Positions 20,448-36,269 of a DNA stretch of 64,000 bases are shown here, in pieces. The notes under the pieces were generated by a model, which saw only the letters and a program-made list of their open reading frames with translations, was not told the DNA's origin and did no database searches. Positions within the stretch are counted from its first letter, which is position 1, and every line of letters starts with the position of its first letter. Where the stretch lies: contig JAZKAN010000001.1 in assembly GCA_040389125.1 (NCBI GenBank), positions 178,737-242,736 on the forward strand, written 5' to 3'. The translations under genes and the position numbers were made by a program. The stretch is from Patescibacteria group bacterium. GTDB taxonomy: Bacteria > Patescibacteriota > Minisyncoccia > Phycocordibacterales > DATDWN01.

Positions 20448-20487
20448 TAAATGAAATATATTTGGGGTATCGGTGTACTATATACAT

Positions 20488-22275
20488 ATGAAAACATACT
20501 TTTCGGAAAGATTGCCACGACTTAAAAATTATGTCATTGCGCACAAAATTCTGGCTAGCACAACTATTATTGCAGTTTTACTTGTTGGATATTGGGGAGT
20601 AAAGAAAGTACATGGTTCTACAAACGAGGTGCGATACATAGTGACCACCGTCAAAAAAGGAACTGTAGTTTCAACAGTCAGCGCAAGTGGACAAGTGTCA
20701 GCTACCAACAAAGTAGATGTCAAAGCAAAAGTTTCTGGAAACATCACATGGGTAGGAGCAACTGTGGGGCAGAGAGTGTATGCGGGACAGGGGTTAGCAT
20801 CTATTGATAACAAAAATGCAAAAGCAGCTCTTGCAGACGCACAGGCATCGCTTGCGCAAGCAAAACTTCAATTCCAAAAAGATCAGGCGACTGCACCGAT
20901 AAACTATCAAAAGTCTGTTGATGATGTAACAAATGCAAAAAACGATTTAGATACTGAATACAACGACACATTTAATAATCTTTCAAATACATATCTCGAT
21001 ATCCCACCGGTAGTAACCAGCATGCAGAATATTTTATACGGGTACGACCTCAGCCCAACATCCAGTCAGTGGAATTTGGATGTACTCAAAAATATGTTTA
21101 GTAGTAAAGATGAGGCACAAAAGATACTCAATTTTGCAAACATAGCAGAGAGTGACTACAAAACTGCTCGCACAAAATATGATGCTGCGTTACTTGTATA
21201 CAAACAAATGAGTAGATTTTCTGATCCTACTCAAATGGAAGATTTACTTGCAAAATCTATAGACATGCTCACTGCGGTTGCCCAAACACTACAAAGTGAG
21301 AGCAATTTTCTAAGTTCAATAACAGATACAGCGAGTCTATATAATGTGCGATTGTCGAGTACTATTTCTACAATGCAAACAAATACTCGAAGTAACATTT
21401 CTACAACAAACAATAGTTTGAGTACTCTTTTGTCACAGAAAAAATCACTCGAAACAAGTAAGCAGACAATAAAAACTGGTGAGCAAAATTTGGAACTTTT
21501 AAAAATTGGAGATTCATCTGGCAACAATCCGATCAGTTTACAAATATCAGAAAACAACATTGAAAAACAAGAACGGAATCTACAAGATTTACAAACAGCA
21601 CTGTACGATTATACAGTAGTCGCACCATTTGACGGAACAGTCGCAGCTGTCACTGCAAAAGTGGGTGATACGAGTGGTACGATTGCGACGATTATTACTG
21701 ATGGGCAGGTCGCAGAACTGTCACTCAACGAAGTAGATGCATCCAAAGTTAGTCTCAAACAAAAAGCAATTCTCACATTTGATGCAATTGATGATTTGAG
21801 CATGACCGGTACTATTTCTGAAATCGATCCAGTTGGCACAGTCTCCCAAGGTGTAGTGAGTTACACAATCAAGATAACATTTGATACACAGGATCCACGT
21901 ATAAAACCGGGGATGACAGTAAACGCTGCTATTCAAACTGCGGTACATAGTGACGTACTCGTAGTTCCAAGTTCCGCTGTAAAAACAAGTAGAGGAACGA
22001 GTTATGTGCAAGTCTTTACACCTCCCCTTGTCGATACTGGCGGTACAGCTGGAACAATCTCGGGTACACCACCAGAACAAGTTGAAGTGACAACGGGAAT
22101 ATCAGACGGTACAACTATTGAGATTCAGAGTGGCCTAGAGGAGAATGAACAAATAGTTTCGAGAACTATTACCGCAACTACTGTTGCCAAAACTACTAGC
22201 ACAACTCCATCTGCAACTTCCCTTCTCGGCGGCGGTGCTGGAGGGAGAACTGGTAATGTAAATTTTGCACGATAG
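20488..22275 (+). CDS. efflux transporter periplasmic adaptor (HlyD/MFP, MacA-like)
   Basis: N-terminal TM helix, long coiled-coil, and beta-barrel segments (VSGNITWVGATVGQRVYAGQGLASID...). Upstream of an ABC ATPase/permease pair. The start could be 20473. Confidence 0.8.
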   Translation: MKTYFSERLPRLKNYVIAHKILASTTIIAVLLVGYWGVKKVHGSTNEVRYIVTTVKKGTVVSTVSASGQVSATNKVDVKAKVSGNITWVGATVGQRVYAGQGLASIDNKNAKAALADAQASLAQAKLQFQKDQATAPINYQKSVDDVTNAKNDLDTEYNDTFNNLSNTYLDIPPVVTSMQNILYGYDLSPTSSQWNLDVLKNMFSSKDEAQKILNFANIAESDYKTARTKYDAALLVYKQMSRFSDPTQMEDLLAKSIDMLTAVAQTLQSESNFLSSITDTASLYNVRLSSTISTMQTNTRSNISTTNNSLSTLLSQKKSLETSKQTIKTGEQNLELLKIGDSSGNNPISLQISENNIEKQERNLQDLQTALYDYTVVAPFDGTVAAVTAKVGDTSGTIATIITDGQVAELSLNEVDASKVSLKQKAILTFDAIDDLSMTGTISEIDPVGTVSQGVVSYTIKITFDTQDPRIKPGMTVNAAIQTAVHSDVLVVPSSAVKTSRGTSYVQVFTPPLVDTGGTAGTISGTPPEQVEVTTGISDGTTIEIQSGLEENEQIVSRTITATTVAKTTSTTPSATSLLGGGAGGRTGNVNFAR

Positions 22276-22281
22276 TTCCGT

Positions 22282-22983
22282 ATGATTGAAATAAAAAATA
22301 TTACAAAAACATACGGTACAGGAGAGATGGCGTTTCAGGCTCTGAAAAATATTTCTTTTACGATACACGATGGAGAATTTCTTGCAATTATGGGACCATC
22401 GGGGTCAGGCAAATCTACACTCATGCATATACTTGGATGTCTCGATACACCGACATCTGGAACATACCTTTTGGATGGCAAGGATGTCTCCACTTTTTCT
22501 GATGAAAATTTAGCAGATATTCGAAAGGATAAAATTGGTTTTGTGTTTCAATCATTCAATCTCCTCCCTCGCACATCTGTATTACGCAATGTAATGCTTC
22601 CTCTCGTGTATGCTGGTATCGAAGGTGAAGAGAGAGAAACTCGAGCAAAAAACGCTCTCCTCGCAGCAGGAATGCCGGAGAGTCACTACGGACACCGATC
22701 CAATGAAATATCTGGTGGACAGATTCAGCGAGTCGCCATTGCACGTGCTCTCGTCAATAATCCCAGTCTAATCTTGGCAGACGAACCCACTGGAAATTTG
22801 GATACCAAAACTGGAGATATTGTGCTCGGAACATTTGAAAAGCTGAATCGTGAGCAAGGTAGAACAATTGTACTCATTACACACGAACCAGATGTGGCAG
22901 AGCATGCTCGTCGAATAATTTATATAAAAGATGGTGTAATCACAAGTGATAGTACATCACACAAACAAAAATCAATCTCATGA
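22282..22983 (+). CDS. ABC transporter ATP-binding protein (MacB/LolD type)
   Basis: GPSGSGKST Walker A, LSGGQIQR signature, ILADEPTGNLD Walker B. Confidence 0.9.
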   Translation: MIEIKNITKTYGTGEMAFQALKNISFTIHDGEFLAIMGPSGSGKSTLMHILGCLDTPTSGTYLLDGKDVSTFSDENLADIRKDKIGFVFQSFNLLPRTSVLRNVMLPLVYAGIEGEERETRAKNALLAAGMPESHYGHRSNEISGGQIQRVAIARALVNNPSLILADEPTGNLDTKTGDIVLGTFEKLNREQGRTIVLITHEPDVAEHARRIIYIKDGVITSDSTSHKQKSIS

Positions 22984-24212
22984 ATATAAAAGACACTCTC
23001 GAAGAAACATACACGGCACTCTCTGCAAACAAAGTCCGCTCGGGGCTCACTATTCTTGGTATTGTTATTGGAATTTCTTCTGTTATTGCACTGGTTTCAA
23101 TAGGAGCAGGCGCGTCTAGCTCAATCACTAGTCGTATCGAGTCACTCGGTTCAAACCTCATTCTGGTTACTCCCGGTGCGGCACGCAACCAAGGTTTCGG
23201 TGTAAGTACTGGTCGTGGAGCAGCACGGTCACTGACTATGACAGACGTAAATTCGATTGGAACAGGAGTTACGGGAGTTAGGGCTGTGACGGCAGAGGTG
23301 TCAGGTAGATATCAAGTAACTGCCAAAGGTACGAACACAAATACGACTGTCGACGGTGTCACCTCAACATATCCTCAAATCCGAAATCTGGAAATAAGTG
23401 ACGGAGCTTTTATTGATGATACTCAAAATGATAGTATCGCAAAAGTTGCAGTTGTTGGTCCTACTGTGGTCACAGATTTATTTGGTGTAGATGCAATTTC
23501 AAGCGATGCAATCGGCCAAATCATACGTATCAAAGGAATTCAATTTACAATAATCGGTGTAACGGTCGCAAAAGGCGGTACTGGATTTAGTAGCCCAGAT
23601 GATATGATCTATATCCCGATTACAAGTGCACAGCGGTACCTCTCTGGAAATCAATATGTAAATACGATAGATGTTCAAGCTGAAAATCCCAGTGTCATGA
23701 CTCAGGCCCAAGAGGACATTACAAATCTTCTACTTACAAATCATCATATATCAGATCCTGCCCAAGCTGATTTTAGTGCTCTCAATCAAAATGACATTTT
23801 ATCTACAGCCTCGAGTGTTACTGATACGTTGACGTACCTCCTTGGTGCAATAGCTGGAATCTCACTCATTGTTGGTGGTATTGGTATTATGAACATGATG
23901 CTGACGACCGTGACAGAAAGAACGCGAGAAATCGGACTCCGAAAAGCGATCGGGGCAAAGAAAGCCGATATCAGTAAACAATTTCTCATCGAAGCGACAA
24001 TACTCACCTTGATCGGAGGAATTATAGGCATTATTCTCGGGTGGAGTATTTCTTTTATTGTAAATGCAACTGGAATTCTCTCTACAAGTGTTTCACTTTC
24101 ATCTATATTTTTAGCATTCGGAGTATCTGCAATAATTGGGATTGTTTTTGGATACTACCCGGCCCGTCGAGCGTCTCGGCTGAGCCCAATTGAGGCACTC
24201 AGATACGAGTGA
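22980..24212 (+). CDS. ABC transporter permease (FtsX/MacB family)
   Basis: 4-TM FtsX-like topology with a large extracytoplasmic domain. Overlaps the ATPase gene by 4 nt. Confidence 0.85.
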   Translation: MNIKDTLEETYTALSANKVRSGLTILGIVIGISSVIALVSIGAGASSSITSRIESLGSNLILVTPGAARNQGFGVSTGRGAARSLTMTDVNSIGTGVTGVRAVTAEVSGRYQVTAKGTNTNTTVDGVTSTYPQIRNLEISDGAFIDDTQNDSIAKVAVVGPTVVTDLFGVDAISSDAIGQIIRIKGIQFTIIGVTVAKGGTGFSSPDDMIYIPITSAQRYLSGNQYVNTIDVQAENPSVMTQAQEDITNLLLTNHHISDPAQADFSALNQNDILSTASSVTDTLTYLLGAIAGISLIVGGIGIMNMMLTTVTERTREIGLRKAIGAKKADISKQFLIEATILTLIGGIIGIILGWSISFIVNATGILSTSVSLSSIFLAFGVSAIIGIVFGYYPARRASRLSPIEALRYE

Positions 24213-24262
24213 TAAAATCGATCAGTTTTCAAAGTTAATAATTAGTAAATTAAAAAAATAAT

Positions 24263-24688
24263 ATGAATAAAAATACAACAACAATTATAATCGCAATAGT
24301 ACTTATTATCGGGGCTTTTTATGGAGGTATGAGATATGGTCAACACAAAATAGCAACAGGTTTTCGAACAGGAGGAATGCCCGGAGCATTTGCAAATGGA
24401 AATGGCACAAGAACAGGGGCACGGGGAATGCTCGGACAAAATGGTGGACTCGTCAGTGGCGAGATACTGAGTAAAGATGCAACAAGCATCACAGTCAAAA
24501 TGCGAGATGGGGGATCAAAAATAGTGCTTATTTCTGAAACAACTCCTGTGATGAAATCTGCATCTGGCAAAATTTCTGATCTCATAGTTGGTGAGCAAAT
24601 AACAGCAACTGGTACTGCAAATCCCGATGGTAGTATTGTGGCACAATCCGTACAAATTCGACCTGCAACCACAACTCCAGCAAGATAA
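24263..24688 (+). CDS. hypothetical membrane-anchored Gly-rich protein
   Basis: N-terminal TM helix (IIIAIVLIIGAFYGG) and a Gly-rich linker. No known domain. Confidence 0.5.
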   Translation: MNKNTTTIIIAIVLIIGAFYGGMRYGQHKIATGFRTGGMPGAFANGNGTRTGARGMLGQNGGLVSGEILSKDATSITVKMRDGGSKIVLISETTPVMKSASGKISDLIVGEQITATGTANPDGSIVAQSVQIRPATTTPAR

Positions 24689-26896: not shown

Positions 26897-27226
26897 ATGA
26901 AAATAGACGCTGAAAACCAGAAAGCACAAATGAGAAAAGGGATTCTCGAATTCTGTATACTTCTCATTATTTCTCGTGAGAAAAAATATGCATCAGAAAT
27001 TATCAAGGAACTCAAAATGAGTGATCTCATAGTTGTCGAGGGTACGCTGTATCCCCTCCTTTCCCGTCTTCGTGGTCTGGGACTACTCACCCATACATGG
27101 GAAGAATCCAAAGAGGGCCCACCAAGAAAATACTACGAACTGACAGAAAAAGGCAAAGAGACACTCGCAAGTCTCAAGGAAACGTGGAAGAAATTATATG
27201 TTTCGATCGACACATTAATTCAATAA
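26897..27226 (+). CDS. PadR family transcriptional regulator
   Basis: Winged-helix motif ILEFCILLIISREKKYASEI...GTLYPLLSRLRGLGLL. Confidence 0.85.
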   Translation: MKIDAENQKAQMRKGILEFCILLIISREKKYASEIIKELKMSDLIVVEGTLYPLLSRLRGLGLLTHTWEESKEGPPRKYYELTEKGKETLASLKETWKKLYVSIDTLIQ

Positions 27227-27235
27227 ATAATCATT

Positions 27236-28318
27236 ATGAAAAAAACAATACCAACCAGCATCGCAAATACACTCTTTTATATCGAGGAGGATGCGTATGC
27301 CGAATTACATATATATCTCGAATCAATTCGAAATCATTTTAAATCAAATCCTGATAGTCAAGAAATAATATCCGATATCGAAAGTAGAATTGCAGAACAG
27401 TTTATCGAGTACGCAGGAAAAAATACAGAAACCAACAACCGGATTATAACCCTAGAGCACGCTCGAAAACTAATGCACTCAATGGGGAAACCAGAGGATT
27501 TTAACGATGCCGAAACACATGAAAATACCGACTCTGTTCATAACGCAACGAGAAAAGACAATCGCCGCAAACTGTATCGTGACCCGGACAATGCACAAAT
27601 CGGTGGAGTGGCATCAGGACTCGCAGTGTATTTCGATGTTGATCCAGTATTGATTCGCCTCCTCTTTATCCTCGTCGTACTCCTTGGTGGTTCTGGAATA
27701 CTTATTTATATCATCCTATGGATCCTTATTCCCGAAGCAAAAACAACTTCTCAGAAACTAGAAATGCGTGGCGACCCCATCAATCTCGAAACAGTCAGTA
27801 GTGCAATAAAGGAAAAAATTGAAGAAGTAAAAAATCACAAATCCAACGAGCACGGTGTAGTACGAGGATTTTTTGGATCAATAAAAAGAATTATTTATTT
27901 TGTTGTAGATAAATTTATTCCAGTTATAGGAAAAGTAATCGGGGCGATCCTGGTGTTTGTATCTGTCATTGCATCTGTAGCACTTATATCTGCACTTCTC
28001 ATCAGTGTCATTCATCCAGAAACTCTGCTTTTGACTATTCCAATTTCTCTCAGTATTACAGGAGCGACATACATACTGCTTGTGATCGGAATATTTTTGA
28101 CCGCTATCGTTCCAATATTCCTCATTGGAGAACTTGGCATGATACTTATTCATGCTCGCTCAAAAACCCACCGCCATATCAGCCCCCTCCTCATTGCCTT
28201 GTGGCTCGTGGGTGTAATCATGACTATTGTAATCAGTGTTCCCGTTGTACATGAGTATCAACAGTTGCATCCTGATTTTGATAGAAATAATGAGATTTAT
28301 TTCCAGAGAACGTATTAA
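27236..28318 (+). CDS. PspC-domain membrane protein
   Basis: IGGVASGLAVYFDVDPVLIRLLFIL PspC motif plus further TM helices. Forms a PadR-PspC pair. Confidence 0.8.
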   Translation: MKKTIPTSIANTLFYIEEDAYAELHIYLESIRNHFKSNPDSQEIISDIESRIAEQFIEYAGKNTETNNRIITLEHARKLMHSMGKPEDFNDAETHENTDSVHNATRKDNRRKLYRDPDNAQIGGVASGLAVYFDVDPVLIRLLFILVVLLGGSGILIYIILWILIPEAKTTSQKLEMRGDPINLETVSSAIKEKIEEVKNHKSNEHGVVRGFFGSIKRIIYFVVDKFIPVIGKVIGAILVFVSVIASVALISALLISVIHPETLLLTIPISLSITGATYILLVIGIFLTAIVPIFLIGELGMILIHARSKTHRHISPLLIALWLVGVIMTIVISVPVVHEYQQLHPDFDRNNEIYFQRTY

Positions 28319-28718: not shown

Positions 28719-29123
28719 TTATTTATCCTCTGTATTTTCCTCTAAATCAAGACACACAGAGTTGAGACAAAACCGTTTGCCGGTTTTGGTAGGACCATCA
28801 TTGAATACATGACCGAGATGAGAGTCGCATCTACTACACAGGATCTCTGTTCGCACTACCCCAGCAGTGTCATCCATGCTAAATTTCACTGCACCAGGTA
28901 GAGCCTCGTCAAAACTTGGCCAGCCAGTTCCAGAATCGAATTTTGCTTTAGATGAAAACAGGAGGTTACCACATGCAACACATGTGTACATACCGTCTGC
29001 CTCCTCGTGCACGTATTTGCCTGTAAATGGTGCTTCCGTTCCCTTGTCCCGCAATATTGCATACTGTTCAGGAGTCAGATTTTTCTTCCATTCGTCCTCA
29101 TTTTTTGGTATATCTTTGTCCAT
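28719..29123 (-). CDS. msrB: peptide-methionine (R)-S-oxide reductase
   Basis: CxxC...CxxC zinc motifs and catalytic RCDSHLGHVFNDGP. No signal peptide. Confidence 0.9.
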   Translation of the reverse strand: MDKDIPKNEDEWKKNLTPEQYAILRDKGTEAPFTGKYVHEEADGMYTCVACGNLLFSSKAKFDSGTGWPSFDEALPGAVKFSMDDTAGVVRTEILCSRCDSHLGHVFNDGPTKTGKRFCLNSVCLDLEENTEDK

Positions 29124-29157: not shown

Positions 29158-29715
29158 TTATTTTTTTAATAATTCTGCAAAATTTTTCTGAACTTTTTCC
29201 AGTTTTGGATTGATAACCAGCTCGCAGTATGCAGCATCCTTGTTCCGTGCATAGTAGTCTGCATGGTAGTTTTCTGCAACATAAAATGTCATGAGTGGTT
29301 CAACCTCTGTCACAATTGGTTTTCCATCTGAATTTGAAGCATTTATATCCGCAATAAATTTCTCTGCTTTTTGTTTTTGGGTTTCAACTGTATAAAATAT
29401 AACGGATCGGTATTGAGTTCCAATATCATTACCCTGACGATTGCGAGTGGTGGGATCATGCGATCCAAAAAATACAGTCAATAAGTCTATGTAGTCTATC
29501 TCGGATGGATTAAATTCTATACGAATACACTCTGCATGTCCCGTAGTACCACTACACACCTGATCATATGTCGGATTAACTGTTGTGCCACCTGCATATC
29601 CAGGCAACACCGATTCTACCCCCTTGAGCATTTTGAAAACTGCCTCCGTGCACCAGAAACATCCCCCACCGAACACTGCGATTTCATTTTTTGAGTCTGT
29701 CATGAGTAAATACAA
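29158..29715 (-). CDS. msrA: peptide-methionine (S)-S-oxide reductase
   Basis: GGGCFWC active-site motif. No signal peptide. Confidence 0.9.
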   Translation of the reverse strand: MYLLMTDSKNEIAVFGGGCFWCTEAVFKMLKGVESVLPGYAGGTTVNPTYDQVCSGTTGHAECIRIEFNPSEIDYIDLLTVFFGSHDPTTRNRQGNDIGTQYRSVIFYTVETQKQKAEKFIADINASNSDGKPIVTEVEPLMTFYVAENYHADYYARNKDAAYCELVINPKLEKVQKNFAELLKK

Positions 29716-29785
29716 TTATACCTCACAAATACAACTAAAACGAATCAAATTGCCTCAGATGCTAGGCCTGTAAGATTTTGAGAGT

Positions 29786-29844
29786 GAGCCGTACTTAGTG
29801 GTACGGTGAATGATCAAAATTGAAACACAACAACGCAGATGAGG
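29786..29844 (+). repeat. GUAC-hairpin element (family B/C) copy
   Basis: GAGCCGTAC-TTAGTG-GTACGGTGA...AACGCAGATGAGG, located between the FNR-like stop and the msrA start. Confidence 0.8.
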
Positions 29845-29858
29845 TAATTTTATTCGTT

Positions 29859-31370
29859 TTAGGCAAAACCTGGGAAAAAGTCGATCTTGATATGCTTAAC
29901 TCCCATTTGTTTTAATGTTTTTTCAAACATAGCGACCATACTATGCGGCCCTGATATATAAAATTGTCGTTCTGCAAAATCTGGAATTTCCGCACGTATC
30001 ATGTCTGCAGTAATAAATCCCTTGCGAAATGAGGGCGGAAGTTCACTCGGCACATCGTCAGTAACTGCATATACCGTGCGAATATCGAGCGTCTCCTCTG
30101 CTATATCAAATATATCTTTGTATGCAATATCCTGCATCGTGCGATTTGAATACAGCATGACCACATCACGTTTTTCTTTCATATCAATCATGTATTTGAC
30201 CATGCTACGAAACGGTGTGACTCCGATACCACCTGCAATGAAAACTAGTTTCTGTGTTGTATCATGTGGCAATGTGAAATTTCCGGCGAGTTGTGATGCT
30301 ATGATAGTGCCTCCTGTTGGAATCTGTCCGAGTGCTAGTTTGAAACTACTCGACTGTTCGTAAAATTTGATACCGAGACGAATATCACTTTCTGTCGGGG
30401 ATGATGATAGAGTAAAATATCTACGGTTACCGCGCGTATCCATATTGTCGTGACCAAGTGTCCACTCCATGTATTGTCCAGGTCTATACGGAAAACGTTT
30501 TTCTAATGTAAACACAAATTCATCTGTATCTTTTGCTATTTCCTTTTTATCTTTTAGAGTCAAAATCGTTCTAATCTTTGGGCTGACTATATACGAAAAA
30601 ATATTTCCAAGAATAAGTGCAAGTTGTGGTGTTGAATACACTGATCCAATATGAAACTGGAGTCCAAAAAGTACACCAACAATACCACCATATACCACCT
30701 GTAAATTCAGTGATGGAGGAGTGGTGAGAGGTTCAGTAAGCATGACTGCGCCGAAAAAGACAATTGGTCCTGAGAACAGAATACTATTTAGAATTTCTAA
30801 AACTGGTATTCCGTATGTAAGACCGGTAATAGTAGAAACAATAATCGCTGGGATAAAGAAACTAAAAAAAAGTGTGAATCTGCGAGTTTTGCGAAGTGTG
30901 AGAAGTCCCAACACAGTGACAACTGGAAGCAGAACGCTACTACCAACCCACCATGAAAATCCAGTTACACCAAATATTCCCAGGAGAACAATACTAATCG
31001 CAACAGGATTAAAAATATGTTTCCGGTTAATATTAAAAATATATTTTGAACCCATCGCGAGCACCCCAACAACTATGTATAACAAAATATCCGAGTATGT
31101 AGTGAGTGGTGTCAATATAAAAAACAAAATAATGCCCGTAATCCACTCTGACTCAGCATTGCGTGGCACACCGAGAAATAATGCAAAGAGTTTGTTTGAT
31201 AAGTAACACACTGCGAAAATCAAAACGAGAGAATACAGGAGGTGTAAACCACTAAATGTGAGTATACCAAGAAATCCAAAAACGATTGAAATCAGTGCAA
31301 GAATACAGAGGCTATAGAGAGCAACTCTATACATAGTAATCTTATTTAAAAAGGTATCTATTGGATTCAT
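29859..31370 (-). CDS. polytopic membrane protein fused to an FNR-like FAD/NAD(P)-binding oxidoreductase domain
   Basis: About 8 TM helices in the N-terminus. The C-terminus has RRYFTLSS (RxY[ST] FAD motif) and LVFIAGGIGVTPFRSM (NAD-binding GGxGxxP). No His set for heme. Confidence 0.75.
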   Translation of the reverse strand: MNPIDTFLNKITMYRVALYSLCILALISIVFGFLGILTFSGLHLLYSLVLIFAVCYLSNKLFALFLGVPRNAESEWITGIILFFILTPLTTYSDILLYIVVGVLAMGSKYIFNINRKHIFNPVAISIVLLGIFGVTGFSWWVGSSVLLPVVTVLGLLTLRKTRRFTLFFSFFIPAIIVSTITGLTYGIPVLEILNSILFSGPIVFFGAVMLTEPLTTPPSLNLQVVYGGIVGVLFGLQFHIGSVYSTPQLALILGNIFSYIVSPKIRTILTLKDKKEIAKDTDEFVFTLEKRFPYRPGQYMEWTLGHDNMDTRGNRRYFTLSSSPTESDIRLGIKFYEQSSSFKLALGQIPTGGTIIASQLAGNFTLPHDTTQKLVFIAGGIGVTPFRSMVKYMIDMKEKRDVVMLYSNRTMQDIAYKDIFDIAEETLDIRTVYAVTDDVPSELPPSFRKGFITADMIRAEIPDFAERQFYISGPHSMVAMFEKTLKQMGVKHIKIDFFPGFA

Positions 31371-31382
31371 ATATATAGTATA

Positions 31383-32255
31383 TCACTCCTTTATAAATAC
31401 CTCTGCGACAAATCCTTCTGATTTTTCTATTGAATAGTCTGGGCGCAAAAGCAAATATTCAAAATTAAATTTCTGTTGCAATACAGATGCGGGGACAAAA
31501 AAAAGTGCAGTAGTAAGGAGATCAGCAAGAATAGTGCTGTCTGCCGTAACCCACACAGCAAGCATGTCATCTGGTGAGGAAAGGTTCTCGGGATGAATAA
31601 TATGATGAAATCTCCCCCATCGTCTACGATTGCCGGCGGATCCACAGAGACTTTGGTTTGAAATAACTACCACGCCCAGAACCTGACTCGGATCATCGGG
31701 ATGTTCCAGTCCGACACGGAGATTTTCTATAGTATGTCGGTGTCGCATGTCTCCGCTTGCATCCACACAATATTCCAGAATCCCATTTTGCTCTAGTAGT
31801 TCACTTATAATATCCACCAGATATCCCTTTCCTCCCGCTCCAAAATCAAGTAGTGCAGGTTGTTTCAAAACAAGTTTGGGATGTTCATATTCTAGTACAT
31901 CATCCCACTCCCGTGCACGTGACATTTCTTTCTCCACAAACGAATACTCTGCGTCGTATCCCGCATCCGACAAAACCTGTCCCACTAGCGGAGTCACCGC
32001 ACCTCCAGTTACTTCATACACAACACGATACAAGGACATCATGTGTTCTGCATCATCTGGAACAATGTACTCACCAGCAGTGTGAGACATGCGCGTGACT
32101 AGAGAGTCCTGTCTAAAACGAGAATAGGCGAGATCAAAAATCTCAATGCGACTTTTTATTTTTTGCAATACAGATTCTTCCTCGTCTTGAGTAATCTGGG
32201 TATACACATCTATACGCCAATGTGTACCAATAGCTTCAAACTCAAATGTAGTCAT
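31383..32255 (-). CDS. apbE: FAD:protein FMN transferase (ApbE family)
   Basis: DFGAGGKGYLVD and SGD motifs, with ApbE-length collinearity. Confidence 0.85.
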   Translation of the reverse strand: MTTFEFEAIGTHWRIDVYTQITQDEEESVLQKIKSRIEIFDLAYSRFRQDSLVTRMSHTAGEYIVPDDAEHMMSLYRVVYEVTGGAVTPLVGQVLSDAGYDAEYSFVEKEMSRAREWDDVLEYEHPKLVLKQPALLDFGAGGKGYLVDIISELLEQNGILEYCVDASGDMRHRHTIENLRVGLEHPDDPSQVLGVVVISNQSLCGSAGNRRRWGRFHHIIHPENLSSPDDMLAVWVTADSTILADLLTTALFFVPASVLQQKFNFEYLLLRPDYSIEKSEGFVAEVFIKE

Positions 32256-32264
32256 ACAAAAAAA

Positions 32265-32750
32265 TTATGCTTGTGCCTGTATTTCTATCTTAGAAATTGC
32301 ATCATTCCAACCTCGTGGAGTGAGAGATGATCCTGAAACTTTAGTGAGTTGTACATCTGTGATTTTCTTGCCGATTACGTACTGTTTGAAACCTGAAGTA
32401 AATTTTGTTTGGAATTCCTGTGATTCCCGAACTACTGCCTGCGGAGTAACAGTAGCGGCTGTGATTACTCCACCTTGGAGGGTTACATTAATTTTGATTG
32501 TTTCTGGACCAGCAGGAGAAATATATGCACCAGTCGCAGAATACGAACCATCCTTGAATTGTCCAGATGTGACAACAGTAGTATCGCCAGAATCAGTCGT
32601 TGTGGCATTTGGATTCACACTTTCTGAACCTGCTGATGTACCACTAGTAACAGGAATCTCGGTAGGTGCTGACGACTGCATATTTCGATACGCAACATAT
32701 CCGAAGAAAACAACTAACACCCCTACAGACAAAATTATTTTTTTATTCAT
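32265..32750 (-). CDS. FMN-binding domain protein (NqrC/RnfG-like), membrane-anchored
   Basis: TM anchor, then the FMN_bind pattern GQFKDGSYSATGAYISPAG...VTLQGGVITAATV. The flavinylation motif is non-canonical (SATGAY). Confidence 0.7.
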   Translation of the reverse strand: MNKKIILSVGVLVVFFGYVAYRNMQSSAPTEIPVTSGTSAGSESVNPNATTTDSGDTTVVTSGQFKDGSYSATGAYISPAGPETIKINVTLQGGVITAATVTPQAVVRESQEFQTKFTSGFKQYVIGKKITDVQLTKVSGSSLTPRGWNDAISKIEIQAQA

Positions 32751-32773: not shown

Positions 32774-33127
32774 TTATTTTTTAAAAGATTTTTTATTTTT
32801 TATTGTAAATGCCTTGTCCAGCTGATCGGGCACAATGCCATGTTCCTGCAAAATTTGTTTCAAGGTTTTACCTGACTTTAATTCTTTTTTTACCATACCT
32901 CTGTCGAGACCGAGACTTGTTGCCAGTTTACCTACCTTTGCTGTGGAATTCCAACTATGCATGAGATGCATACCAGTTGGAGCCGATACCTGCTCTGTAG
33001 GCGACGAATAATCCTGAGTATCTGCATATGCGGTACCAGAACCCATCCACATCATACCCGCCAAAATACCACTACTTGCACCCAATAAAATACGCTTTTT
33101 AACCTTGTTATATCGTTTATATTTCAT
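32774..33127 (-). CDS. hypothetical secreted protein
   Basis: Signal peptide (ILLGASSGILAGMMWMGSGTAYA) and a basic C-terminus. Confidence 0.5.
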   Translation of the reverse strand: MKYKRYNKVKKRILLGASSGILAGMMWMGSGTAYADTQDYSSPTEQVSAPTGMHLMHSWNSTAKVGKLATSLGLDRGMVKKELKSGKTLKQILQEHGIVPDQLDKAFTIKNKKSFKK

Positions 33128-33190: not shown

Positions 33191-33922
33191 TCATTGACTA
33201 TTAAACTTTTTTATTCCATATGCATGGATTTCTCCATTGACTATATCACCAGCCACGAAAACGTGATCTCCGATTGTAATAAATAAAGAAACCTGTGTTG
33301 AGGTGGGTGTAATAACTCGTATAAGACGGCTTTCCTCGTCAGTGTCTGGGTGCATCATGAACGTATTATCCTCTATTTCTCGTACCACCCCTTCAAATAC
33401 ACCTCTGTCTTCATGAGGATGGCGTAGCCCTGTATAGAAGCCACCTACAACAGGCAATGCGTTATGCTCTGCACGATTCATTATCCTGCCGTGGATAGGT
33501 GTGGCAGTATTTACGACATAACTGACAACTACAATACATATTGCCGTGCCAGCAAACAGAAATATTGTCGGACTATGATACCCAAACCGAAATCGCTTGA
33601 GAAGAAGGCCGAGTATTGTAACGAGCACAATATCAACCAAAAACACTACCCATGGAAACAGAACAATAAACACGAAAACTCCCCTCCAACCAAATCCCAG
33701 CAGAAACAGTCGCCCACTTATCGAGAGACTAAACAATGTGTAGCTAATCAGGAAAATCGAAGTAATCAAAATAAGAACCATAAGGAGAACAGAGATAATC
33801 ACGGAGAAAATAAAATAAATTTTTGGGCGCATTGAAACCTCCCCCGCCTCAATTTTTTCGAGAACTTTTTGTTTGAGATTTTCTTGTGTATGTGTGTCGT
33901 TCATATATTTAATGTAAATCAA
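33191..33922 (-). CDS. putative anti-sigma factor (polytopic membrane protein)
   Basis: Directly downstream of the ECF sigma gene and overlapping its 3' end (alternative start MNDTHTQ at 33904). Multiple TM helices. Confidence 0.5.
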   Translation of the reverse strand: MIYIKYMNDTHTQENLKQKVLEKIEAGEVSMRPKIYFIFSVIISVLLMVLILITSIFLISYTLFSLSISGRLFLLGFGWRGVFVFIVLFPWVVFLVDIVLVTILGLLLKRFRFGYHSPTIFLFAGTAICIVVVSYVVNTATPIHGRIMNRAEHNALPVVGGFYTGLRHPHEDRGVFEGVVREIEDNTFMMHPDTDEESRLIRVITPTSTQVSLFITIGDHVFVAGDIVNGEIHAYGIKKFNSQ

Positions 33923-34484
33923 TCTTTAGATCAGCATACGATTTGCGGAGAGCGGCTTTAGCCCGACTGAGCCGGATTCCTACCGTTCCTATTGGTATCC
34001 GCAAAATGTCCGATATTTCCTGATAACTGAATTCCTCGAGATAATACAACACGAGGATTTCTCGGTAATTCGGCGACAGTTTCTCGAGTCCTGCGTCCAC
34101 AATTTTTCTCATTTCTTTTTGCTCTCTCTCTTTTACAATCGGATCGTCCACCACTGTGTGAGATATAAGCGTATCAAAATCAAACATATAGAGTGGCGAA
34201 CGAGATTGTTTCTTGAGTGCATTCACGTATGTGTTGTGTGCGATACGGTAGATCCACGATGAGAATTTCTGTTTGGTGTCAAAACTCTGGATATTTTGAT
34301 ATGTTTTTATAAACACCTCTTGTACCACATCTTCTATATTGTCTTGATTTGAGAGAAATTTATTGCCATATCGAAAGAGCTTTCGCTCGTAGCGTTCCAT
34401 CAGTATCCCAAACTGTTCCTTGTCTCCATGTTGGACTAGAAGGGCCAGTTCCTCGTCGGTAAGCTCTACAGCGGGTATATTCAT
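33909..34484 (-). CDS. ECF-type RNA polymerase sigma factor (sigma-70 regions 2 and 4)
   Basis: Region 2 (FRYGNKFLSNQDNIEDVVQEVFIKTYQNIQSFD) and region 4 HTH (YREILVLYYLEEFSYQEISDILRIPIGTVGIRLSRAKAAL). Confidence 0.85.
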   Translation of the reverse strand: MNIPAVELTDEELALLVQHGDKEQFGILMERYERKLFRYGNKFLSNQDNIEDVVQEVFIKTYQNIQSFDTKQKFSSWIYRIAHNTYVNALKKQSRSPLYMFDFDTLISHTVVDDPIVKEREQKEMRKIVDAGLEKLSPNYREILVLYYLEEFSYQEISDILRIPIGTVGIRLSRAKAALRKSYADLKIDLH

Positions 34485-34553
34485 CTCTGTAACTATATAA
34501 TTAGTACACCTAGGAATCAACATTCTTTCATATGCAAAAGCTTTGAATATAAA

Positions 34554-36269
34554 TTATCCAAAAGTAAACGTAAAAGCATTCAGTCCCGCCTTGGGCACAT
34601 CAATTTCCAAAGTATGTTTGCCGTAGTCCTCTCCCTGGATCAGAGTGTAGAGTTGGTTGCCACTTATTGTTACAGTGTTCACTTTTTTGCCATCACGTAA
34701 AATTGTGATCGTCATGGGTATATCGCTACTTGCCACAAAATACACATTTTTTGCGTCATAATTAAAAAATATTTTTGTCTCGCCTTTTGATGTTGCATAC
34801 TCAGGAGAGATATTCCATACGCCATCCAGATACAGCAAGTTATCGTATCGCGAGTTTGGAATTGTAAATACCTGAGATCCATTTATTCCCTGCCTACCGT
34901 TTGCCAGGTACTCATTCCGACTGGATCCAAAATATGTTTCAGGACTCGCAATTTTTCTTGGATCAACCGAAACCACATTTGTGGGCTGTGCGATAGGTTC
35001 CGAAACGGGAGCGTTATTTAATTCTGAAAGTGCGGACTGGATTGCGAGTTCTGTTTCCTCGTACCCACCTTCGCCAATATGATCGTAAATAATCTCACCA
35101 CGACTATTTATCAGATATTTTCTCGGCCAATACTGATTTCCGTATGCATTCCATGTCGCGTAGTCGTTATCCATGACTACCGGATACTCGATACCAAACC
35201 GCTTGATCGCGTCTTCTACATTGGATTGCACTTTTTCAAATGCAAATTCCGGAGTATGTAGTCCGATCACCTCGAGTCCCATGTCTTTATATTTTTTGTA
35301 CCACTCCACAACATATGGCAATGTCCTCTGACAGTTGATACAGCTGTATGTCCAGACATCCAGCAGAATAACTTTTTTTCCCTTGAACTCGCCGATTGTG
35401 ATAGGTTTGCCATCTGTATTTATAAATCCACTAGGTTTTACTATTTCAGGAGCCTTGGGACCATGCGAGATATTTTTTGATGTAGTGCTCGATGTATTTG
35501 TATTTAAAAATCCAAGTTCGTTACTGTTATATACATTTGGCATTGTTTGTAATCCTAAAAGTTTTTGTTCTATACGAGTCACATCAAATATTCCATGTGC
35601 AAGGAGTGACGCCTCGATTTTTTTATCTACCCCAAACATAATTCCAATACCAAGAATAATGAATAGTAGCCCGAGACTTCGTTTGAATATGCCGTGACTA
35701 TCCGCAATTCCACCGAGACGCGCAATAATTTTCTGTCCTAAAAATGCCACAACAAGAAGCATCCCCGAAAGCCCAACTGCATAGGCTAGCAAATCAATCG
35801 TCCCCACCAGGAGTGACTGTGGCAATACAGTAGCCAAAATAACAAAATATGTTGGAGAGCATGTAGAGAACACTGGTCCTAGTGAGCCGCCTACAATAAT
35901 ATCTCCCCAGAAACTTTGTTTCTGATACCCCACTCCAAGTATTCTATTTGAGTCCACTGATAGTCGCGAAACAAATGGAATATTCTCCCATAACTCTGGA
36001 AAAAGGTTCACGAGTCCAAATAGTACAATAATGGATCCAGAAATAACTGCCCAGACTTCCGGTGGTATTGAAATAAAAAGTGTTGAGACTTTTAGAATAA
36101 ATGTAAAGACGATAACAGAAACACCAAGAGACAATGCAATTGTGATGGCTTTCTTTTTGTTTTTCTCACCCACTACTGAACTTCCAACAATAACTGGCAA
36201 AAGTGGTAATGTACACGGTGCGAGAATAGTGAGCACACCCGCAACAAACGAAAGTATGAAAAGTATCAT
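34554..36269 (-). CDS. CcdA/DsbD-type transmembrane thiol-disulfide transporter fused to a TlpA/ResA-like thioredoxin domain
   Basis: N-terminal CcdA core (LAPCTLPLLPV). Central thioredoxin fold with WTYSCINCQ (CxxC). About 170-aa C-terminal domain of unknown function. Confidence 0.85.
   Translation of the reverse strand: MILFILSFVAGVLTILAPCTLPLLPVIVGSSVVGEKNKKKAITIALSLGVSVIVFTFILKVSTLFISIPPEVWAVISGSIIVLFGLVNLFPELWENIPFVSRLSVDSNRILGVGYQKQSFWGDIIVGGSLGPVFSTCSPTYFVILATVLPQSLLVGTIDLLAYAVGLSGMLLVVAFLGQKIIARLGGIADSHGIFKRSLGLLFIILGIGIMFGVDKKIEASLLAHGIFDVTRIEQKLLGLQTMPNVYNSNELGFLNTNTSSTTSKNISHGPKAPEIVKPSGFINTDGKPITIGEFKGKKVILLDVWTYSCINCQRTLPYVVEWYKKYKDMGLEVIGLHTPEFAFEKVQSNVEDAIKRFGIEYPVVMDNDYATWNAYGNQYWPRKYLINSRGEIIYDHIGEGGYEETELAIQSALSELNNAPVSEPIAQPTNVVSVDPRKIASPETYFGSSRNEYLANGRQGINGSQVFTIPNSRYDNLLYLDGVWNISPEYATSKGETKIFFNYDAKNVYFVASSDIPMTITILRDGKKVNTVTISGNQLYTLIQGEDYGKHTLEIDVPKAGLNAFTFTFG

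Follow-up and report, generated by a model that had tools for sequence, protein, structure and literature searches.

The window analysed here is a 64,000-nt stretch of contig JAZKAN010000001.1 (assembly GCA_040389125.1, positions 178,737 to 242,736) from a member of the Patescibacteria, or Candidate Phyla Radiation (CPR); positions below are those of the window. Between 29,859 and 32,750 it holds three genes that together are a candidate for a membrane-bound flavin electron-transfer system. In the direction of transcription they code for a small anchored protein of the FMN_bind type (FMN, flavin mononucleotide), a flavin transferase of the ApbE family, and a fusion of a polytopic membrane domain with a domain of the ferredoxin-NADP reductase (FNR) type, which binds flavin adenine dinucleotide (FAD) and NAD(P)H (Table 1). 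An earlier note on this DNA had reported three collinear minus-strand genes, and all of them are found in the list of open reading frames at these positions. The intergenic spacing within the trio is 9 nt between the FMN_bind and ApbE genes and 12 nt between the ApbE gene and the fusion, and the trio is part of a single run of nine co-directional minus-strand genes (28.7-36.3 kb). The start of the fusion at 31370, which gives 503 aa, is backed by the conservation of residues 1-12 throughout the family; a database entry for the protein, P0001, falls 12 residues short of this start.

Table 1. Positions of the three genes, their predicted domains and the surrounding features in the window.
Feature	Position	Strand	Details
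FMN_bind (NqrC/RnfG-like) gene	32265-32750	minus	161 aa
Ser142 codon, predicted FMN phosphoester acceptor	32325-32327	minus	in the FMN_bind protein
ApbE gene	31383-32255	minus	290 aa; PF02424, 125 bits
Fusion reductase gene	29859-31370	minus	503 aa; stop codon 29859-29861
RnfD/NqrB-like membrane domain of the fusion	30576-31370	minus	residues 1-265
FNR-type FAD/NAD(P)H domain of the fusion	29862-30569	minus	residues 268-503
Nested inverted repeat	29735-29862		outer arms 28 nt, 86% complementary; inner arms 20 nt
msrA	29158-29715	minus	PMSR, 213 bits; likely start ATG 29703
msrB	28719-29123	minus	SelR, 161 bits
Small secreted protein	32774-33127	minus	signal peptide ends AYA; MHLMH motif
ECF-type sigma factor (upstream context)	33909-34523	minus	Sigma70_r2 and Sigma70_r4_2 domains; SigW-like NCBIfam matches
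DipZ-like fusion	34554-36269	minus	571 aa
PadR-family regulator and PspC-domain membrane protein	26897-28318	plus
HlyD-like protein, ABC ATPase, MacB/FtsX permease, DUF5666 protein	20473-24688	plus

The fusion protein belongs to a large family. Its relatives form more than 7,600 clusters at 90% identity in a metagenome protein set, and most of those listed come from CPR genomes. The membrane domain alone retrieves 1,384 clusters at 50% identity (345 with E <= 1e-30); of the best 150 matches listed, almost all are fusions of 490-510 aa. With one genome per species, at least 438 confirmed relatives are present among 600 pattern matches listed. A set of 80 loci was compared, from Patescibacteria, Chloroflexota (including Ktedonobacteria), Alphaproteobacteria (Mesorhizobium, Kaistia), Spirochaetota, and Actinobacteria. 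Iterated hidden Markov models detect ApbE in 68 of these loci and an FMN_bind partner in 70. The order FMN_bind-ApbE-fusion on one strand, with genes that usually abut or overlap, is found in 65 of the 80 and in five phyla, so that the co-occurrence proposed as a check in the earlier note is strong. Neither partner gene is detectable beside the fusion in 8-9 loci, and in several of these the absence looks real, the full upstream flank being present. Fusions without a nearby ApbE or FMN_bind gene occur in L014, L018, L049, L053, L060, L062, and L071, some of them next to other small N-terminally anchored proteins. The one in L060 (7002-7490, minus strand) has a DSGAT sequence in its linker and may be an alternative flavinylated partner. 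The same trio is present in cultured hosts (Mesorhizobium, Kaistia, Dictyobacter, Ktedonospora, and Agreia), which makes genetic tests feasible.

The membrane half of the fusion is, as judged from several profile comparisons, a homolog of RnfD and NqrB, a relationship that the earlier note had missed. It matches PF03116 (NQR2_RnfD_RnfE) with 22.3 bits (E = 9.5e-5; gathering score 27.7). A profile of 12 sequences covering residues 1-268 matches Azotobacter RnfD (8ahx_D, E = 4.6e-5), with mlTEPlTTP aligned over iaTDPvTSP, and the hhalign comparison with Escherichia coli RsxD gives a probability of 88% (E = 2.8e-6, residues 156-258). About half of the closest 120 relatives of the fusion carry precomputed PF03116 matches, and several are named by NCBI "RnfABCDGE type electron transport complex subunit D." Two further searches were set aside. 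Foldseek of the full-length fusion against the PDB is dominated by FNR-family matches and is uninformative on the transmembrane (TM) part. In a search for homologs of E. coli RsxD intended for a deep RnfD profile, the 120 best matches listed were all enterobacterial, with 84-100% identity, and the loop of RnfD Thr187 could not be mapped.

The AlphaFold2 (AF2) model of the fusion has ten TM helices (mean predicted local distance difference test score, pLDDT, of 85), instead of the approximately eight counted previously. Conserved motifs of the membrane domain are KHIFNP (117), WWVGS (140), and TEPLTTPP (212). In 21 relatives, the mean number of lysines plus arginines is 1.10, 0.62, 2.14, 2.90, 1.62, and 2.14 in the six inside loops and 0.14, 0.10, 0.14, 0.24, and 0.00 in the five outside loops. 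From this alternation across the 11 loops, the two termini are cytoplasmic, as is the FNR domain. In the family alignment, a single histidine (H118) of the TM part and a single cysteine (C55) are conserved. A [ST]G[AS][ST] motif is absent from the fusion in all 21 aligned family members, and is present somewhere in the protein in 3 of the 80 loci. With one conserved histidine, one conserved cysteine, and no acceptor motif, bis-heme ligation, iron-sulfur clusters, and a covalent FMN of the NqrB type are ruled out. Electron transfer based on heme or iron-sulfur centers was therefore rejected, and the statement of the earlier note that a heme-ligating set of histidines is missing stands.

The C-terminal half of the fusion matches PF00175 (NAD_binding_1) with 60.2 bits at residues 377-483 and PF00970 (FAD_binding_6) with 21.2 bits, about at the cutoff. 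Its closest sequence matches among solved structures are the FAD/NADH domains of NqrF (6e-17), and Foldseek with the AF2 model retrieves FNR-family structures with E values down to 1e-17. Of the two motifs previously described for this domain, GGxGxxP is present exactly (GGIGVTP, residues 380-386), whereas the supposed RxY[ST] is in fact RxFT: the FAD motif is R317-Y-F319-T320, within RRYFT (316).

The FMN_bind protein is more divergent. It matches PF04205 with 15.9 bits (E = 0.021, cutoff 22) at a relaxed threshold, and nothing is found at E <= 0.01; 29 of 40 relatives match the same family, the best with E = 1.1e-6. The profile of its family matches the solved FMN-binding domain 8p2a with E = 0.06, aligning VSGSSLTpkGF over VSGATYTSAGY. 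Foldseek with the protein model ranks 8p2a (probability 0.98), RnfG, and NqrC among the best hits, with weak E values (0.02-0.4), and hhalign gives no significant alignment between the family and E. coli RsxG (probability 2.8%). The AF2 model of residues 67-161 has pLDDT >90. Taken together, profile and fold evidence are consistent with the 161-aa protein being a divergent FMN_bind member. An identical protein is on record from a Patescibacteria metagenome-assembled genome (P0121), under the NCBI name "calcium-binding protein."

This protein consists of MNKK followed by a 17-residue hydrophobic anchor (residues 5-21) without an obvious cleavage site, a linker rich in serine, threonine, and proline, and the domain at approximately 67-161. 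Lysine or arginine is found on the N-terminal flank of the anchor in 70 homologs; actinobacterial homologs have classic lipoboxes and those of spirochaetes have cleavable signal peptides. Hence, the FMN_bind domain is placed outside the cytoplasm, and loop charges and the N-in anchor put it on the side of the membrane opposite to the FNR domain, as expected for the arrangement envisaged in the earlier note. A variant form of the ApbE-type acceptor motif is present. The canonical acceptor is Dxx[S/T]GA[T/S]; here the context is T-K-V-S139-G-S-S142 (VSGSSLTPRGW), with serine in place of the alanine of SGAT and without the upstream aspartate. Among 40 relatives, S139, G140, and S142 are invariant and S141 is conserved in >=90%. 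Ser142, which aligns to the threonine of SGAT in 8p2a and lies in a loop before the last helix (H144-160 in the AF2 model), about 20 residues from the C-terminus, is the predicted flavin site.

The product of the second gene is, by its sequence, a clear member of the ApbE family, of a long subtype characterized by FEAIGTxW. It aligns over residues 2-254 with the solved ApbE structures of E. coli and Salmonella, its residue 2 corresponding to residue 16 of the E. coli crystal-structure chains, and keeps GGKGY (141), HHIIHP (217, with the histidine of the HxI[DH]P motif), and ADLLTT (244, ADxxxT). The subtype of the transferase co-varies with the acceptor motif of its neighbor: the long ApbE is paired with G-S-S (16 loci) or G-A-S (2 loci), the short ApbE with G-A-T (38 loci) or G-A-S (6 loci), and there are no exceptions. 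This identifies ApbE as the cognate transferase of the FMN_bind partner. No signal peptide, lipobox, or TM segment is found in the ApbE of the window, and its reading frame could not be extended upstream, since the preceding gene is just 9 nt away. Likewise, even with the longest possible reading frame, none of the 68 related ApbE proteins, from five phyla, has an export signal (in every case the best 19-residue N-terminal stretch has a Kyte-Doolittle hydrophobicity <1.6). Examples are L001 5400-6134, L030 6249-6992, and L078 6120-6992. The earlier note had assumed that ApbE acts outside the cytoplasm, which conflicts with this lack of any export signal.

We propose that the locus codes for a two-subunit transmembrane flavin electron-transfer complex resembling parts of NQR and RNF, together with its dedicated flavin transferase, and give this reading a probability of roughly three in four. 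What the earlier note had outlined, a minimal path for electrons from NAD(P)H to a flavin outside the cytoplasm, agrees with the topology, the acceptor motif, and the co-occurrence, and it fits what has been modelled for the "NQR/RNF-like system," a flavinylation-associated cluster with a PF03116 + PF00175 fusion (Méheust et al. 2021, eLife, PMC8238504; Huang et al. 2024, PMC10979944). The outline in the earlier note is in essence this published picture, arrived at independently. By homology, the FAD of the cytoplasmic NqrF-like domain would oxidize NAD(P)H, and the electrons would then pass through the fused ten-helix RnfD/NqrB-like domain, as in the published AlphaFold-multimer model. Because this domain lacks heme ligands, iron-sulfur ligands, and a covalent-flavin site of its own, it presumably uses a non-covalent flavin. 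At the outer face the electrons would reach the FMN predicted to be covalently bound to Ser142 of the anchored FMN_bind subunit, where ApbE would be the cognate enzyme that attaches it, and from there they would leave for an acceptor. The flow would probably be one way, from the inside to the outside. CPR bacteria are not known to have respiratory chains or quinones, and an autonomous path that takes electrons from NAD(P)H to a flavin at the surface would be one of the few ways for such cells to shed electrons or to supply reducing power to their surface or host.

Several observations weigh against this proposal. Both PF03116 and PF04205 remain under the Pfam gathering scores for the proteins of the window, and the alignment with RnfD is limited to the final ~100 residues of the TM domain (residues ~143-259). 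The topology is based on hydropathy, AF2 helices, and the positive-inside rule, not on a dedicated predictor. A literature search for experimental work on the NQR/RNF-like system returned only two bioinformatic papers and a review. Finally, a signal-less ApbE and an exported substrate apparently lie on opposite sides of the membrane, which a simple model does not explain.

The genes that accompany the trio bear on its use. In the 80 loci they include MacB/FtsX permeases (24 loci), OmpR-type histidine kinases (23), response regulators (18), HlyD-like proteins (11), small PepSY-domain proteins (7, alphaproteobacterial), DUF5666 proteins (6), P-type cation ATPases (6), and sigma factors of the extracytoplasmic function (ECF) type (5, plus the window). 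The complex could be an assimilatory metal (ferric) reductase instead of a general electron sink or a stress system. The P-type ATPases and the PepSY-domain proteins speak for such a role, as does the ferrous-iron transporter VIT1 in six of the 127 published NQR/RNF-like clusters (PMC8238504). However, six of 127 is a small fraction, no iron transporter is found in the annotated 19-37 kb of the window, and the commonest neighbors of the trio are regulators and MacB-type exporters of the ATP-binding cassette (ABC) class; a ferric reductase thus seems rather unlikely. Two-component genes are often encountered directly downstream of the fusion (e.g., L075 9241-10305 and L057 3370-4044), and in their place the window and its sister contig have the ECF sigma factor and a membrane protein (33191-34523). 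In many lineages the conduit seems to be controlled in response to signals, and because ECF sigma factors or OmpR-type two-component systems adjoin it in many genomes, it is probably expressed in an envelope or oxidative-stress response. In the window the ECF sigma factor, whose synteny is maintained in L081 and L082, may regulate the gene string and lies outside the conduit itself.

The location of ApbE calls for an explanation within the proposed complex. Tentatively, FMN may be attached in the cytoplasm, before or during the Sec-dependent export of the FMN_bind protein. After this come, in decreasing order of likelihood, an unrecognised export of ApbE, a cytoplasmic FMN_bind domain, and another role for ApbE. 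A search of the literature for a signal-less ApbE with an exported substrate found no discussion of such a case. There is precedent for cytoplasmic ApbE enzymes with cytoplasmic substrates, such as the one that serves the fumarate reductase of Klebsiella pneumoniae (PMC12052999). That transferase lacks a signal like the one of the window, but its substrate is soluble and cytoplasmic, whereas the evident substrate of the window family carries an export anchor or a lipoprotein signal. The precedent, the evidently cognate ApbE, and the lack of an export signal in the window and in 68 of 68 related loci would all be accommodated if the whole flavin chain were cytoplasmic, the flavinylated FMN_bind domain staying inside the cell between the FNR and RnfD-like domains and the membrane domain passing electrons to a membrane or external acceptor. 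The published NQR/RNF-like topology would then need revision. Against this, the FMN_bind partner is always anchored, with N-terminal lysine or arginine predicting an N-in, C-out orientation, has lipoprotein signal peptides in Actinobacteria and cleavable ones in Spirochaetota, and carries the Ser/Thr/Pro-rich linker; moreover, the published multimer model puts it at the extracytosolic face (PMC10979944). A wholly cytoplasmic chain is accordingly improbable. Under pre-export flavinylation of an outward-facing subunit, surface flavoproteins would mature without an exported transferase or a FAD exporter, which would suit flavin-scavenging CPR cells. In any case, a cognate ApbE that never carries an export signal turns into a concrete, testable question where and when a surface flavoprotein is flavinylated.

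The earlier note also linked the trio to methionine-sulfoxide repair, since msrA and msrB come after the fusion gene in the same orientation. Such an arrangement recurs in the closest relative, L081 (71% identity), with a gap of only 27 nt, and the DipZ-like fusion and the ECF sigma factor in the same string suggest a shared oxidative-stress theme. The link does not extend to the family. Genes for MsrA or MsrB are present within 7 kb of the fusion in only 3 of the 80 loci, where their positions and orientations differ, and adjacency as a family trait was rejected on this count; at 71% identity, shared ancestry alone can account for it. Both proteins are, moreover, ordinary thioredoxin-type cytoplasmic enzymes without signal peptides, as had been stated, and in the window 155 nt lie between them and the fusion, a gap that holds a structured inverted repeat and, 13 nt before the likely msrA start, a TATAAT box. 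It is hence very unlikely that the conduit feeds reducing power to MsrA and MsrB or to methionine-sulfoxide repair in the envelope: msrAB are neighbors, not demonstrable partners, and a direct electron link is not supported. Co-regulation of msrAB with the trio under the upstream ECF sigma factor is possible, as is a theme shared with the DipZ-like fusion.

The inverted repeat in the gap is nested and overlaps the stop codon of the fusion gene. Its RNA fold has -33.9 kcal/mol (z = -5.5), it is present in a single copy in the window and absent from L081, and it may act as a terminator or attenuator or represent a small palindromic insertion. A scan of 28.5-36.5 kb for sigma-70 promoters and terminators gave counts not above those of shuffled sequence and did not help to define operon boundaries. 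Rfam finds one tRNA in the window and no FMN riboswitch.

Other genes of the region deserve mention. The DipZ-like fusion at the start of the co-directional string is made up of a membrane domain of the CcdA/DsbD type, a TlpA/ResA-like redoxin with CxxC, and Thioredoxin_10, so that the locus would hold two transmembrane routes for reducing power, one through thiols and the other through flavins. The gene just upstream of the FMN_bind gene codes for a small secreted protein that is kept in L081 (1981-2310), is matched neither in the 80 related loci nor in Pfam, and may be a lineage-specific partner or a metal-binding protein. The divergent pair beside msrB, a PadR-family regulator and a PspC-domain membrane protein, is maintained in L081 and L082 and is another module of the envelope-stress type. 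Further away, the window has a HlyD-like protein, an ABC ATPase, a MacB/FtsX permease, and a DUF5666 protein; the recurrence of three of these (MacB/FtsX, HlyD-like, and DUF5666) near the trio elsewhere suggests a loosely conserved envelope-related neighborhood.

Among known systems, the flavin-based extracellular electron transfer of Listeria monocytogenes (Ndh2, EetA/B, DmkA/B, PplA, and FmnB) shares the logic proposed here, from cytoplasmic NADH to an ApbE-flavinylated surface protein and outward. The membrane parts are unrelated, as Listeria uses a type II NADH dehydrogenase and demethylmenaquinone and the window system has no quinone step. PplA and FmnB are secreted lipoproteins, in contrast to the ApbE of the window, which has no export signal. 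In Listeria, FAD is exported by an energy-coupling factor transporter for extracytosolic flavinylation (PMC9973259); no gene for a FAD exporter is found among the annotated genes around the cluster (~19-37 kb of the window). The reductases of the NOX/FRE/MsrQ type (e.g., SpNOX, 8qq7) also combine a polytopic domain with a cytoplasmic FAD/NAD(P)H domain and outward transfer, and their dehydrogenase domains are structurally similar. They are based on heme, however, whereas the membrane domain of the window is RnfD/NqrB-like, with a single conserved histidine (H118) that makes bis-heme ligation impossible.

With Na+-NQR and Rnf, all three modules are homologous. The membrane domain corresponds to NqrB/RnfD, the FMN_bind subunit, as a divergent member, to NqrC/RnfG, and the FAD/NADH part of the fusion to NqrF, and in those complexes ApbE attaches the covalent FMN, as its homolog is predicted to do here. 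In the window the B-like and F-like parts form one chain; the fusion lacks the 2Fe-2S domain of NqrF (it has one conserved cysteine) and the threonine that binds covalent FMN in the membrane subunit; and ApbE lacks the lipoprotein signal of the NQR-type enzyme. NqrA, NqrD, and NqrE, or RnfA, RnfB, RnfC, and RnfE, are absent from the gene string and the annotated flanks (~19-37 kb), and none of them recurs among the neighbors in the 80 loci. Homology of the membrane domain with subunits of ion-translocating complexes might suggest a remnant pump, descended from NQR/RNF and reduced to a minimal NAD(P)H oxidoreductase that moves Na+ or H+, but with NqrD/E or RnfA/E, NqrA or RnfC, the 2Fe-2S domain, and the covalent-FMN site of NqrB/RnfD all missing, and with a predicted one-way outward flow that cannot close the semicircular path of NQR and RNF, there is no evidence of ion pumping and such a function is hardly credible.

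The best correspondence is with the NQR/RNF-like system itself, recognised bioinformatically in 2021 in 127 clusters, mainly from Actinobacteria and CPR (PMC8238504). The window has the membrane domain of the PF03116 type (profile E = 4.6e-5, sub-threshold in Pfam), the C-terminal cytosolic PF00175 domain on the same polypeptide (60.2 bits; loop charges), and, where the definition asks for an ApbE and/or FMN-binding gene within five genes, both genes immediately upstream of the fusion. The published clusters likewise combine an anchored NqrC/RnfG-like FMN_bind subunit with an ApbE. In the AlphaFold-multimer model of the Ktedonobacter racemifer complex, the NqrC-like subunit sits at the extracytosolic face of the NqrB-like domain, the flavinylation site of NqrB/RnfD is not conserved, and the FMN of the NqrC-like subunit was suggested to reach the pocket in which the NqrB-like subunit binds flavin (Huang et al. 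2024, PMC10979944). The window family lacks the same threonine motif, and Ktedonobacteria homologs (L030, L040) in the locus set have the same gene order. The differences are that PF03116 and PF04205 stay below the gathering scores here, that the FMN_bind protein has an apparently uncleaved anchor instead of an obvious signal peptide, and that S-G-S-S without an upstream aspartate is paired with the longer ApbE subtype. With its demand for Pfam matches and for a SignalP or lipobox call (PMC8238504), the published screen would probably have missed this locus. Most of the family would fail such filters, which explains why it looks much larger here than the published 127 clusters. The class was thus already described in 2021, and the window is a further example of it, not a new concept; what it adds is a member of a subfamily that combines the S-G-S-S acceptor with a long, signal-less ApbE.

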